DNA of 26,651 nucleotides from Candidatus Micrarchaeota archaeon (GTDB lineage Archaea; Micrarchaeota; Micrarchaeia; Norongarragalinales; UBA8480): contig JAZDHP010000053.1 of NCBI GenBank assembly GCA_043805855.1, forward strand, positions 1-26,651, given 5' to 3'. Made by a program: the position numbers. Numbering within the stretch: the first letter of the stretch is position 1; the number at the start of each line of letters is the position of its first letter. Below, one piece after another: positions 15,001 to 18,000 of this stretch.

Positions 15001-18000
15001 GGAACAATTCACGGAGGAAACTAAACTCGCGCTTGATGCGGTCGGCGAATCCAGTTTCTGCAAGTGCAAATCCCGCAAAGTACGCGCCGAGAATTGCAGA
15101 GAGGCCAAGGAAAATTCCTAAAAAGGATACCACAATTCCAGTTCCAAGTGCGAATAGGAAAATTTGGTCACGGTGCCCCCAAGCTTCAAGCCGCTCCATA
15201 ACTGGCCGGGAAACTTTTCCAACTATGAACAACATTGCAATGACGAAAATCAACGCGTTTAGAACCGCAATGTTAAACGACTGGTTACTAGCGACAGTAG
15301 AGAGAAACACAACTAACAGCACTGCAAAAATATCCTGTATAATTAGCACGGAAATTGCAATGCGCGATTCAAGCGAATGCAAAATGTTCTTCTCAATAAC
15401 AAACTTAACCGCTTCAACTGTACTAGCGGCAACTAACATTGAACCAATTACAAGCGACTCCATATCGCCAAAACCGAACAACTTCGAAACAATAAAGCCA
15501 AGTGCAAACGCGCCGGCCATTTCAATAAATGACAACACAACGGCAATGCCGCCAGTTTCCTTAAACCGCTTTAAGTTAACCTCTAGACCTAAATAAAACA
15601 AAACCGCAAGTAGCCCAATTTCACCAAGCGCAACAGAAATGCCAGTCTCGGAAATATACTGCAACCCCTGCTGGCCTAAGAATAAACCAGCTAAAATGAA
15701 ACCAACAGAAGAAGAAACACCAAACCTGGACAAAATAACGCCAAAAACTAAAGCAACTAGCAACACAACGCCAAACTCAGTTACAGGTAAACCAGAAACA
15801 CTTGAAACAACTGCACTCGCGCCGTGTTCAACCAAACCAGTAAATGGAAACATACCAAAAAGTAACGCAAAACCACAATAAAAACACTCGCGGTTCACGC
15901 GAGACACACCCATTTAAAACAAAAACAACCTATAAACATAAAAGGGCCCGTAGCTCAGCCTGGCGATCCTTTTTCTTTTAAAAAAAGAAAAAGCAATCGA
16001 TGGAAAAAGAAAACCAACGATTGCCTCTATAAATTAAAAGAAAATCGGTCAGGTAAATAGAGCGATTGCCTCCTAACGACCTTTTCTTTCTTAAAAGAAA
16101 GAAAACGATCGACGAAAAGAAAGAATTTTGGAGCAAGCAATAGGTCCCGCGTTCGAAGACATCCCTTTTCTTCAAAAGAAAAGGTTCGTCACTCCTAAAA
16201 GAACGGGTGAGTCGAAAATCGCGGCGGGCTCGCTTTTCTTTTTAGAAAAACGTTTAAAACGCAGCGTGTCCCAAATTGTTCTTGCGTTTTAAGGTGATTA
16301 GAGTGGCGAAGCAAACAATTACAGTTCAAGATTTTCAACCAATTGTACAAATTTTAGAAACTCTCATTGAAGATACTTCAATTCCAAAAAACGTACGTGC
16401 GTCAATTACAAAGGCAAAGGAAAAATTAAACGAAAGTGACAAAGACGCCAACACAGTATTGACTAATTCTATACATGCCTTGGAAGAAGTTGTAAACGAC
16501 GTCAACATGCCAATGCACGGCAGGACAATGCTGTGGAACATTCTAAGCGAGCTAGAAGTAATGAAAGAAAAAACATTGTAAAGCTTAAACCGCTAGCGCT
16601 GACTTTTTTGCGTTTTGAATTTTTGCTCCATATTACTTGCTAGGCTCTTTCTTGCTTTTTTTCGGTTTACCTTCTTCAACTTTGCGATCTAACTCGCCGC
16701 CACACTGGGTACAGAATTTCGTCCCAAAAGGAAAATCACGAGTACATTTTTCACAAGTTGCAACGAGTTTTTGTCCACAACTCGGACAGAATTTCAAATC
16801 AGGTTCACTTATTTTTACACTACACTTTGGGCACTTATCGAGTTTTTTGGCTTCTCCAGTATTTCCCCGGTTAAGCCCGCCTCTAAGTGTTTTTTCTACT
16901 CCAGAGGAAATTTCACTACCAGCGCGATAAGAAAGGTCGCTCTTTACCCTTCCAAATATATTGCCTACGCTTTCATCTATAATTCCCATTTAAAGCACCA
17001 CATGTTTATTTCAGAGATTGTCTATAAAAATGCTGTCATTTGCTGTTAAAATTACTTATACTAAATCTTAAACTAAATCTGTTTCTCTAGGTGAATTGTA
17101 CTGCGGAAAATTAGTGTTTAAATCTGAACGCAATTTAGCAATTTCGCTGTCGCACCAGCCGATCATTTTTATCATGTACGCTTCAATGCCTTCTTCATTA
17201 TGTTCTAGTACATCAAGTTGCATTTGAGCTGCATCGGCCCTCATTGTATCACCAGCTTGTCTATGGCGTTTTATTTCATCTAAAAGCTCTGGCCTAGCTT
17301 GTCGCATCATTGCTTCGTACTTTGCGGCCACTTTTTGCGGGTCCAATTCATCAAGTTGTATCTGAGTAGCGTCCACCATCTCAGTATCGCCAGCTTTCTT
17401 GTAGTACGCTTGCTGGTCTAAAAGTTCTGCTTTTTTTCTTTCTTTATCCCTCTTGGATGACTCTGATTCAGGCGCTTTTAGTTTAGCGTTCTTTTCTTTC
17501 ATTGCCTTTAGATTTTGTTCAAGTTCTTTCTTCGTATTTAGAAATGAAATGTATTTTTCTACCGCGAATCGGTTTTTCACAATTGCCTTTGCTCTTGGAT
17601 CGACTGCATCTGCGGCTTCAGAATACATTCTATCGCCTGCAATTGTAATCTTGCCAGTTATAATGAAGTCTCCAGGCGCATGTTTAGGCAAATTTGGATA
17701 TGCAATTTTGCCATTTGTCATGTTCTTAACTGGGTTTGGCGTTCCAAAAGTAACAACTGAACCATCTTTGCAAAGTTCAATATACGCCGAAATATCGTCG
17801 CAAACTTTTGACCCGCGAGGCGATTTCGTGGCGTTAATTTTTGCAACTACATTTTTAGGCATTTTTGCAGTTAATTTATCAATTATATTTCCAATCATTT
17901 GCGATGTGGGCAAAAACTCAATGGCAGGATACCCTGAAGCTATTTTCAAAAATTTATTCACGTCTTTACCGCTGTCTAGAATTTTCATGTTAAATATTCC

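Follow-up and report, generated by a model that had tools for sequence, protein, structure and literature searches.

The window analyzed here comprises 26,651 nucleotides of a Micrarchaeota MAG (92% complete, 67 contigs). Within it, a Na+/H+ exchanger gene and a UPF0147 gene are separated by a 362-nt spacer that contains a tRNA-Arg(CCU) gene in four pieces. The features of this region are as follows (positions in the window):

14036-15913, - strand: Na+/H+ exchanger gene
15913-15919, + strand: TTTAAAA, a possible archaeal TATA box judging by sequence, 25-31 nt 5' of the tRNA start
15944-16232, + strand: tRNA-Arg(CCU) gene with three insertions (93, 60 and 61 nt)
15944-15963, + strand: exon 1 (acceptor 5' strand, U8 A9, D-stem 5' strand, D-loop to G18 G19)
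15964-16056, + strand: intron 1, 93 nt, in the D-loop after G19 (19/20); core with pyrimidine arm 15969-15979, purine arm 15983-15993 and mirror purine run 16003-16013
16057-16075, + strand: exon 2 (D-loop end, D-stem 3' strand, anticodon stem 5' strand, C32-A37, anticodon CCU)
16076-16135, + strand: intron 2, 60 nt, at the canonical position 37/38; core with pyrimidine arm 16082-16092, purine arm 16095-16105 and mirror run 16115-16125
16136-16157, + strand: exon 3 (A38, anticodon stem 3' strand, variable loop, T-stem 5' strand, T54-A59)
16158-16218, + strand: intron 3, 61 nt, in the T-loop at 59/60; core with pyrimidine arm 16164-16171, purine arm 16177-16184 and partial mirror run 16197-16203
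about 16187-16210, + strand: second hairpin of intron 3
16219-16232, + strand: exon 4 (U60, T-stem 3' strand, acceptor 3' strand, discriminator G)
16233-16252, + strand: trailer CTTTTCTTTTTAGAAAAACG, with a terminator-like T-run and an apparent weak copy of the pyrimidine/purine hairpin
16276-16581, + strand: UPF0147 gene

The position of TTTAAAA and its A/T content agree with an archaeal promoter, and CCA is not encoded at the end of exon 4. ARAGORN predicted no tRNA in the whole window. Rfam returned nothing at gathering score across the same sequence, and at E<=1 the interval 15850-16350 gave six chance-level weak matches, all far below the cut-offs. When the four exons were joined by their coordinates, ARAGORN called tRNA-Arg(cct), and all four border variants (4/4) were accepted; both this call and the orthologs indicate that joining restores a canonical cloverleaf. 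The minimum-energy fold of the 292-nt precursor retains the acceptor, D, anticodon and T stems (z = -4.74), and none of 200 shuffles folded equally well.

Predicted splice junctions and orthologs of the Arg(CCU) gene

All three junctions can combine a central helix of 4/4 pairs with bulges of 3 nt and one or more flanking helices, arranged as in bulge-helix-bulge (BHB) motifs. The junction of intron 1 is a relaxed HBh' motif (4,1,4) with an h' of 4 bp; an alternative register, shifted by one base on each side and giving a perfect CCUG/CAGG, is possible, and the choice between the two rests on the D-loop of the orthologs. Intron 2 has an hBH junction (4,5,0) with an h of 5 bp, in which CUCC (32-35), paired by hand, meets GGAG at 16130-16133 with 3-nt bulges on either side. 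Intron 3 forms a full hBHBh' motif (4,5,2): UUCG (54-57) pairs with CGAA at 16213-16216, the bulges are AA|G and AA|U, and the outer helix is the T-stem itself.

The ortholog in G007 (L023; same family, other genus) is uninterrupted and likewise lies 5' of a UPF0147 gene, and exon 1 is identical there and in the ortholog of G002 (L028, same genus). The D-loop insertion, intron 1, is missing from both orthologs, and a sibling copy of it occupies the D-loop of tRNA-Glu(UUC) (C31:2132). At 37/38, G002 carries an unrelated 41-nt intron with 30 matches to intron 2. Intron 3 is shared (54 identical of 61/62 nt), and its G002 copy has a paired one-base deletion that affects both hairpin arms. Since the exons of our gene and of the G002 ortholog are identical at 75/75 positions while the introns are diverged, unrelated or confined to one genome, it follows that the exons are under selection and the introns turn over.

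A metagenome assembler could have wrongly stitched the repeats, which are short and numerous, into tRNA genes, and Logan contigs do break within the Arg(CCU) locus. We give this explanation virtually no credence. Homologous introns occupy the same sites in the separately assembled genomes G001-G003, G018 and G029, and contigs from run X1 (a strain 95-99% alike) cover 15700-16046, which takes in upstream-gene sequence, exon 1 and part of the D-loop intron, and 16135-16282, which reaches from exon 3 across the T-loop intron to trailer sequence, although X1 may be the sample of origin and its contigs therefore do not count as independent support.

tRNA genes across the genome

According to the genome-wide survey's note, standard finders see few tRNAs in this genome (4-9) and nearly all tRNA genes are split, tRNA-Thr(UGU) alone being intact. 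Our independent analysis agrees on both points. ARAGORN -i reported five genes in the whole genome, one of them with an implausible 1100-nt intron, and RF00005 exceeded its cut-off at five places. Spliced alignment of 81 reference tRNAs from relatives, with a locus threshold of at least 0.5 per nt (reversed references reached a maximum of 0.49), recovered 36 loci, one of which, on C59, is dubious; the earlier count was about 41. At least one insertion of at least 10 nt was present in 35 of the 36, the sole intact locus being Thr UGU (C31:27841-27912). There is about one locus per anticodon, and the joined exons gave a normal ARAGORN call in 33/36 cases. As aligned, the loci carry no insertion (1 locus), one (6), two (11), three (16), four (1) or six (1); this overcounts loci 5695-6290 and 12582-13303, where three were aligned each and a structure-based re-reading gives one intron each, and exon borders outside the curated loci, being derived from alignment, may be wrong by a few bases. 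Aligning 16 more hairpin sites in a second pass brought up candidates that all stayed below the threshold (Pro-GGG 0.49, Leu-CAA 0.47, Val-GAC 0.44, Ser 0.39, spacer tRNA 0.50), the remainder being noise.

The T-loop between positions 59 and 60 is the commonest insertion site, as had been claimed. Two-thirds of the loci (24/36) contain an insertion of at least 45 nt in the T-loop region, and a reference-free structural scan for 59/60 introns returned 24 matches, compared with 2 in the reversed genome. When T-loop insertions were located through T-arm and acceptor pairing alone, 13 of 15 had a perfect central helix exactly at 59/60. Where the T-loop reads TTCA, the 3' end of the intron is the complement, TGAA or TGGA, in 5 of 6 loci. 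The T-stem and T54-57 provide the exon side of the splice motif at this site, so that one cassette would suit any tRNA. This role of the T-arm, through which a cassette would become universal, is to our reading a new point, and the anatomy of the site suggests that 59/60 is favored because the exon-derived parts of the motif are universal there.

Genome-wide, a BHB-like motif was found at 37 of 81 aligned junctions versus 7.5% of 1471 displaced pseudo-junctions, a six-fold enrichment. The other 44 junctions have no clear BHB by the rule used; many of these, perhaps not all, are misaligned to the wrong reference. They lend some weight to the idea that the insertions are removed or tolerated without EndA and RtcB, for example because the tRNA works as non-covalent pieces or because the T-loop insertion stays in place as an expansion arm. 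This idea has a slim chance of being right, given the exact 3-4-3 geometry in the three Arg(CCU) introns and in 13/15 T-loop introns, and the retention of both a broad-specificity EndA and RtcB. A 60-nt T-loop arm would also disrupt the contact between T-loop and D-loop. Against splicing, our preferred explanation, we count both these 44 junctions and the finding that in 24 of the 36 loci an insertion contains a sense-strand run of at least five Ts; such runs resemble an archaeal termination signal, and one of them, a T5 run, lies at 15970-15974 in intron 1.

A repeated intron family with a mirrored purine core

Many of the insertions are related to one another. Single-linkage clustering at >=80% identity of the 66 insertions that measure 30-130 nt places 25 in families present in several tRNA loci, versus none after shuffling. 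Together with the junction geometry, this clustering supports the earlier proposal that the insertions act as BHB-type tRNA introns of repeat families. The large ~60-nt family, whose model R1 matches intron 3, also occupies D-loop, anticodon-stem and 37/38 sites. Its presence outside tRNA bodies, likewise reported earlier, holds as well: copies were seen within the 23S gene, next to the spacer tRNA and in the trailers of tRNA genes (window 5828-5895 and about 13009-12952). Another repeat copy was found behind the EndA gene. Our open-frame test of hairpin location is crude, as 12 hairpins in tRNA loci also fell within spurious long open frames.

The core of these introns has a layout that we believe is new for them, namely a pyrimidine arm, a purine arm and a co-varying mirror purine run, as in an intrastrand triplex motif. 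On the sense strand, 28 of 48 hairpins are followed downstream by a perfect mirror run (antisense, 1/48), so that orientation is tied to the tRNA strand, whereas a perfect direct copy follows in 2/48. Introns 1 and 2 each match their mirror run at 11/11 positions in mirror order versus 9/11 in direct order. In 23 other genomes perfect mirrors outnumber perfect direct copies by 22 to 3 among 71 hairpins. We considered the third purine run as a direct repeat that would serve as an alternative Watson-Crick partner of the pyrimidine arm and rejected this reading, since arms with three unevenly spaced Gs are mirrored, as in all three such asymmetric arms of G000; the one counter-example is G016 (L124, direct only). 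The domain order is that of a class II triplex motif as defined in PMC4666352. Loop 1 of the core measures 2-5 nt and loop 2 measures 6-9 nt (CCTTGG, CCTTCGG, CAATCGATG), compared with the 1-6 nt used in the search described in the accessible text of that paper.

Copies of the intron family turned up in 25 of the 41 relatives searched and in 9 of 11 families of the order, the window's own included, and three same-genus genomes are in the same interrupted state. Among the 41 genomes, the number of element copies is negatively related to the number of standard tRNA matches (Spearman -0.64), a value that is descriptive only because kin are not independent. Given this distribution and the sharing of intron 3 with G002, the burst that the survey proposed is not private to this genome. 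Neither is the genome a clear extreme: G013, which belongs to another family and is 90% complete, has only 3 RF00005 matches and 43 element copies.

It is also conceivable that a MITE-like DNA repeat has destroyed these tRNA genes and left dead loci behind, with working tRNAs encoded in the unassembled 8% of this 67-contig genome or derived from a host. DPANN archaea do rely on hosts, and some copies of the repeat are not in tRNA bodies but in trailers or behind the EndA gene. We nevertheless regard this as very improbable. Exons are conserved while introns diverge or are swapped; most joined exons receive a normal ARAGORN call, with roughly one locus per anticodon; junctions are enriched for BHB motifs; the orientation of the repeat follows the RNA strand; and the same-genus genomes share the same state. 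Moreover, the TTCA loops are non-palindromic and face TGAA or TGGA rather than TTCA, so a target-site duplication at 59/60 was rejected. A MITE-like DNA transposon was dismissed on this ground and for the lack of terminal inverted repeats in the family alignment. Profile searches of the 92%-complete genome for the self-mobility genes RVT_1 and Y1_Tnp gave no match, a result that does not establish their absence.

The dominant ~60-nt intron might be a new non-autonomous mobile element, a portable splice cassette with a DNA-acting triplex core that copies itself into stable-RNA genes across Micrarchaeota, a proposal that we offer with considerable doubt. Together with the T-arm, universal among tRNAs, its YGAA 3' end would make up a complete BHB motif, and insertion at 59/60 would therefore be harmless. 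The core, with its pyrimidine arm, purine arm, tight CC..GG turn and co-varying mirror run, would act as a triplex motif in single-stranded DNA, of class II on the coding strand and of T.A-T-rich class IV on the template strand; by stalling or recombining DNA, the triplex could lead to the cassette being copied to new stable-RNA genes. According to the accessible text of PMC4666352, purine-motif triplexes do not form in RNA.

Splicing enzymes and comparison with known systems

The note was right that this genome has genes for a three-unit endonuclease and for an RtcB with an intein. Residues 9-388 of EndA (388 aa; C10:27783-28949) align to residues 10-387 of 4fz2_A (395 aa; E 9e-131, 439.7 bits), which we take to be the ARMAN-2 enzyme and which the search labels only 'tRNA intron endonuclease'. 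Pfam places the catalytic domain in two stretches, along with an N-terminal domain, and EndA is collinear with the solved epsilon2 enzyme, with three units in one polypeptide, as expected of the epsilon2 type. Hirata and co-workers are said to have described in 2012 such a three-unit epsilon2 endonuclease from ARMAN-2. According to the accessible text of PMC3239211, the ARMAN-2 enzyme cuts both strict and relaxed BHB motifs in vitro. The gene content here includes both an endonuclease of the type suited to relaxed motifs and the RtcB ligase. For window 15000-17000 the run search listed three DNA runs from one groundwater study and no RNA run; the contigs of these DNA runs contained no exon joints.

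We consider it highly probable that 15944-16232 works as a single-copy tRNA-Arg(CCU) gene interrupted by three BHB introns of a spread ~60-nt family, which are spliced by EndA and RtcB and fit universally at 59/60. The precursor would fold with its tRNA stems formed and each intron projecting as an arm of its own. For each motif, the epsilon2 endonuclease would cleave within both 3-nt bulges, and the exons would be joined by RtcB. At 59/60, the outer helix would be the T-stem and the central 4 bp would be formed by T54-T55-C56-R57 with YGAA near the 3' end of the intron. The repeat family would have spread among stable-RNA genes of this Micrarchaeota lineage. From the sequences, we infer that the introns are indeed spliced and that translation would depend on EndA and RtcB.

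Earlier work has described heavily interrupted tRNA genes in ARMAN-2, Thermoproteales and Asgard archaea. ARMAN-2 (Candidatus Micrarchaeum acidiphilum) belongs to the same phylum, has the same epsilon2 enzyme type and, as the accessible text of Fujishima et al. 2011 (PMC3239211) describes, has introns that lie at non-canonical positions and show relaxed BHB motifs. However, 56% of its 43 tRNA genes are disrupted according to that text, compared with 35/36 detected loci here, mostly with 2-3 insertions, and the text, its supplementary intron table aside, does not describe a single repeated family or a 59/60 hot spot. In Thermoproteales, multi-intron tRNA genes (maximum three) and intron transposition have been reported (Sugahara 2008 and Fujishima 2010, as related in the accessible parts of PMC4033280 and PMC4090602); similar introns occur in unrelated tRNAs, 59/60 is among the known non-canonical sites, and the endonuclease has broad specificity. 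Thermoproteales belong to another phylum, however, their endonuclease is (alpha-beta)2, and the pyrimidine/purine/mirror-purine core is undescribed in those parts of the two accounts. The accessible part of a 2026 preprint gives 28.3% for Thermoproteales by another clustering method, a value only roughly comparable with our 25/66. Asgard archaea resemble this genome in that hardly any tRNA gene is free of interruption (intervening sequences number about 2.2 per gene), many genes escape standard finders and junctions are enriched 6-10 fold for BHB. In contrast, no copying between tRNA genes is evident there (1.5% of 1062 in families), whereas here it is obvious.

With respect to the core, the closest likeness is to the potential intrastrand triplex (PIT / BoxC) elements of bacteria (Holder et al. 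2015, PMC4666352), which in the accessible text are short, repeated and non-coding and share the class II domain order, the other strand reading as class IV. Those elements are G/C-rich bacterial intergenic repeats tied to genome instability, whereas the motif here is A/T-rich, archaeal and located within tRNA introns, and its triplex is a prediction. A literature search that took in few subscription journals found no description of this intron family, of a 59/60 hot spot in Micrarchaeota or of a triplex motif in tRNA introns.

These results indicate the extent of tRNA gene fragmentation that is possible in a 1-Mb symbiont-type genome. Because standard tools see 5 of about 40 tRNAs, tRNA counts as a measure of DPANN genome quality are misleading. 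Copying of introns between tRNA genes, which had been suggested for Thermoproteales and was not detected in Asgard archaea, is seen here with unusual clarity, and the genome also offers a testable reason for the preference for a single site, 59/60. Finally, the co-varying mirror purine run, kept across the order and unexplained by ordinary base pairing, points to triplex chemistry or to a yet-to-be-named binding partner.

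The tRNA-Arg(CCU) gene and its orthologs

As the genome-wide survey's note had claimed, the window holds an interrupted tRNA gene. Four pieces of an archaeal tRNA, tRNA-Arg(CCU), lie in the spacer between two protein genes, and their exons, joined by coordinates, were called tRNA-Arg(cct) by ARAGORN with all four border variants. The unspliced window gave no tRNA with either ARAGORN or Rfam.

Pieces of tRNA-Arg(CCU) and the genes that border its spacer (window coordinates)
14036-15913, minus strand: Na+/H+ exchanger gene, upstream border
15944-15963, plus strand: exon 1 (GGGCCCG acceptor strand, UA, GCUC D-stem, AGCCUGG)
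15964-16056, plus strand: intron 1, D-loop, 93 nt
16057-16075, plus strand: exon 2 (AUA, GAGC, G, AUUGC, CUCCUA; anticodon CCU)
16076-16135, plus strand: intron 2, 37/38, 60 nt
16136-16157, plus strand: exon 3 (A, GCAAU, AGGUC, CCGCG, UUCGAA)
16158-16218, plus strand: intron 3, 59/60, 61 nt
16219-16232, plus strand: exon 4 (U, CGCGG, CGGGCUC, G)
16276-16581, plus strand: UPF0147 gene, downstream border

A perfect 6-bp inverted repeat (CTCGCG-GTTCA-CGCGAG, 15877-15893) is located about 50 nt upstream of the tRNA start, within the first codons of the minus-strand exchanger gene.

Orthologs were retrieved from 40 relatives by a pattern search with the first 20 bases of the tRNA. G007, from another genus of the same family, has the gene without interruption (mature D-loop AGCCUGGAUA), followed by the same UPF0147 gene, and the locus is therefore orthologous. 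The gene of G002, a genome of the same genus, is without the D-loop insertion, has an unrelated 41-nt intron at 37/38 and carries at 59/60 an intron homologous to that of G000, the window's own genome. The exons of G000 and G002 are identical at 75 of 75 positions; their T-loop introns have 54 of 61/62 positions in common, with a one-base deletion in each hairpin arm, and pairing is thus kept. Judged from these alignments, the orthologs set the exon borders, and tRNA-Arg(CCU) is best read as a functional spliced gene and not a pseudogene: the exons are perfect, and the introns drift and are swapped, gained and lost as predicted.

In a motif of the bulge-helix-bulge (BHB) type, the first 3-nt bulge is made up of the final two bases of the exon plus the intron's first base, the four exon bases preceding this bulge pair in the central helix with intron bases -6 to -3 (from the intron 3' end), and the second 3-nt bulge is made up of the intron's final two bases plus the base that opens the following exon. 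As used here, this rule is consistent with the available portions of PMC3239211 and PMC4090602. At the 37/38 junction, GGAG (16130-16133) pairs with CUCC (positions 32-35), the anticodon stem serving as outer helix; at 59/60, CGAA (16213-16216) pairs with UUCG (54-57), and here the T-stem takes that role; at the D-loop junction, AGGU (16051-16054) pairs with GCCU, one pair being G.U, next to a 4-bp inner helix. A scoring script classed these junctions as hBH, hBHBh' and HBh', respectively. In the predicted minimum-energy fold of the whole 292-nt precursor all four tRNA stems (acceptor, D, anticodon, T) persist, and each intron forms an arm of its own (z = -4.74; 0 of 200 shuffles folded as well). 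Throughout G000, a BHB-like motif was present at 37 of 81 aligned junctions, many of them alignment-defined, compared with 7.5% of 1471 displaced pseudo-junctions.

Interrupted tRNA genes across the genome

Two more tRNA genes of the window are interrupted, and the genome encodes the splicing enzymes described below.

Further tRNA genes of the window, and the RtcB gene
5695-5827, plus strand: tRNA-Ala(CGC), with a G3.U70 pair, second window tRNA gene
13144-13010, minus strand: tRNA-His(GUG), with G-1, third window tRNA gene
1498-4176 of DNA stretch L093 (= G000:C59), minus strand: RtcB, 892 aa when counted from its first ATG

The tRNA-Ala(CGC) gene has one 61-nt intron at 59/60 (5753-5813). 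Its trailer (5828-5895) contains, directly after the discriminator base, another complete copy of the element, a repeated intron family of about 60 nt with a pyrimidine/purine hairpin (match to R1, the model of element copies, at 5829-5888). The tRNA-His(GUG) gene has one 60-nt T-loop intron (13083-13024), whose central helix forms only three of four pairs, and its trailer (~13009-12952) holds an element of the 'AACCGCC' subfamily that differs little from the D-loop intron carried by tRNA-Gln on contig C6.

Standard finders see few tRNAs in G000 (1.03 Mb, 67 contigs with the window as C53, 41% G+C, 92% complete), as the survey had noted: ARAGORN reported 5 genes, and RF00005 exceeded its cut-off at 5 places. 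For a census by spliced alignment, 81 distinct reference tRNAs (63 intron-less, 18 ARAGORN-spliced) from 89 loci of relatives were aligned globally, with long genome gaps free, to every genome window with a common 10-mer. Reversed references, which served as the null, reached a maximum of 0.49 per nt, and loci were accepted at 0.5 or above. This procedure yielded 36 loci. One of them (C59) is doubtful, and in two window loci the aligner introduced too many splits; a second alignment pass round further hairpins added about five sub-threshold candidates, so that the total comes near the 41 originally claimed. Joined exons received a normal ARAGORN call for 33 of the 36. Insertions of at least 10 nt interrupt 35 of the 36 loci, and the sole intact gene is the tRNA-Thr(UGU) already singled out by the survey (C31:27841-27912). 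T5-T6 runs, which we take to resemble archaeal transcription terminators, occur on the sense strand inside insertions of 24 of the 36 loci (including window 15970-15974); the polymerase would have to read through them, a caveat to the spliced-gene reading.

The proposed hot spot at T-loop position 59/60 also held. T-loop-region insertions of at least 45 nt, typically 56-67 nt long, are found in 24 of the 36 loci. A reference-free check that used only T-stem pairing, TTCRA and the acceptor stem found 15 T-loop insertions, and cutting at 59/60 gave a perfect 4-bp central helix in 13. A whole-genome scan for a T-stem, TTCRAN, a 40-179-nt insert with central helix, U8 and an acceptor of 7 bp returned 24 matches, compared with 2 when the genome was reversed; C19:13332-13586 and C21:13030-13265, both among the 24, are clear new loci. 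Among the insertions found by T-arm and acceptor pairing, TTCA loops face TGAA or TGGA, which is the complement; target-site duplication at 59/60 is therefore ruled out.

The preference may have a structural basis. At the canonical site the anticodon is part of the central helix, and each intron therefore has to suit its own host gene. At 59/60 the exons contribute the T-stem plus T54-T55-C56-R57, common to every tRNA, and the cassette supplies its own YGAA. In two of the TTCG hosts the loop lies opposite TGAA, which gives a G.U pair; a cassette not adapted to its host should show just this. We infer that the universal T-arm and the intron-borne YGAA explain the preference for 59/60. The available portions of the tRNA-intron literature contained no statement of this explanation, and the supplements of PMC3239211 may list ARMAN-2 intron positions.

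Both splicing enzymes named by the survey are present. The three-unit endonuclease, a protein of 388 aa encoded at C10:27783-28949, matches PDB 4fz2 along its full length (E 9e-131), and its closest genomic relatives are from Candidatus Micrarchaeota. RtcB is split after approximately residue 50 of the RtcB profile by an intein that is about 430 aa long and contains a LAGLIDADG-like domain. Within DNA stretch L091, 2017-2149 (= C10:28917-29049), an element copy in opposite orientation lies directly 3' of the endonuclease stop codon, followed by a duplicate of the last 33 nt of the endonuclease gene with 5 differences, all at third codon positions, stop codon included. From its sequence, this looks like an insertion with its own replacement gene 3' end.

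The intron family and its mirror-purine core

At 70% identity, 37 of 66 insertions in G000 fall into families. The main family has 23 members, mostly at 59/60 and some in the D-loop, in the anticodon stem or at 37/38; the same sequence has therefore moved between sites. A covariance model trained on 18 T-loop introns and searched in 41 genomes found 58 copies in G000, 32, 20 and 19 in three same-genus genomes, 0-2 in other genera of the family, 43 in G013, 40 in G021 and 10-18 in each of nine more genomes from other families; by this model 16 of the 41 have none. The burst is thus not confined to one genome. T-loop introns of element type at 59/60 occur in G001-G003, G018 and G029. Element-rich genomes have few standard tRNA matches (Spearman -0.64, descriptive only). 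Since G013 (other family, same order, 90% complete) has only 3 RF00005 matches at E<=1e-4 alongside its many element copies, it may be more intron-laden than G000. G004, G006 and G010 combine few tRNA matches with zero element copies and may hold other intron families.

Of 74 distinct hairpins in G000 (stem at least 9 bp), 48 lie in the 36 tRNA loci and 4 at most 150 nt away; the remaining 22 are elsewhere, most outside long open frames, though frames cover 88.5% of the genome. The survey's report of the repeat in 23S rRNA, by the spacer tRNA and in tRNA trailers is borne out by the two window trailers and by copies at C5:60410-60460 (in the 23S gene) and C5:62261-62320 (beside the spacer tRNA), both on the rRNA strand. 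In C5:55607-61835 (minus strand) the 23S rRNA match extends over 4253 nt, although the model has 2987 positions in it, and is adjoined by a second partial match; more than 1.2 kb of insertions is implied.

The element comprises a pyrimidine arm, a 2-5-nt loop, a complementary purine arm, a 6-9-nt linker and a second purine run, which mirrors the purine arm and does not repeat it. Arms with three unevenly spaced G are mirrored (e.g. AAAGAAAAGAAG then GAAGAAAAGAAA), which identifies the second run as a mirror. Of the 48 hairpins within tRNA loci of G000, 28 have a perfect mirror and 2 a perfect direct copy; read on the opposite strand, 1 of 48 has a perfect mirror. The figures for 28 loci of 23 other genomes are 22 of 71 (mirror) and 3 of 71 (direct). 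In many cases the linker reads CC..GG or is palindromic, for example CATCGATG. One subfamily has the palindromic linkers CAATCGATG, CGATCGACG and CATCGATG (window 15994-16002 and 16106-16114; L091 2084-2091), and the T-loop subfamily has CC-N2-4-GG; each type would give a tight turn.

To our knowledge, polymerases produce direct or inverted repeats, never mirror repeats, and an order-wide, co-varying mirror therefore asks for a physical reason. In layout the core corresponds to the intrastrand triplex motif that Holder et al. place in class II, and its complementary strand corresponds to class IV, rich in T.A-T, as these are described in the available part of PMC4666352. According to the same part, purine-motif triplexes do not form in RNA, and therefore any relevant triplex would act in single-stranded DNA or antisense RNA. 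That the core matters via an intrastrand triplex, a suggestion made by analogy, seems to us improbable. In many element copies the mirror run is predicted to lie within the loop of a second hairpin, which brings in a protein or RNA partner as an equally open alternative.

Relation to known tRNA introns

A highly disrupted case in the same phylum is ARMAN-2, with 43 tRNA genes, 56% of them disrupted, and an epsilon2 enzyme that cuts strict and relaxed motifs (Fujishima et al., PMC3239211, available portion); in G000 the proportion is 35 of 36 loci. The accessible parts of other reports describe multiple non-canonical BHB introns, with 59/60 among the sites (PMC4090602), introns copied between tRNA genes in Thermoproteales (PMC4033280, PMC4090602) and near-total tRNA interruption without copying between genes in some Asgard archaea (a 2026 preprint). 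A remark in PMC5829648 takes the incomplete tRNA sets of newly described DPANN genomes as a hint that disrupted genes have gone undetected. What is new here is the near-saturation of tRNA genes by insertions in a Micrarchaeota genome, the single dominant cassette with its patchy spread across the order, and the mirror-purine core in tRNA introns; the structural reason that we infer for the T-loop hot spot is likewise new. The element phenomenon extends patchily over the whole order, with G000 at one of its extremes.
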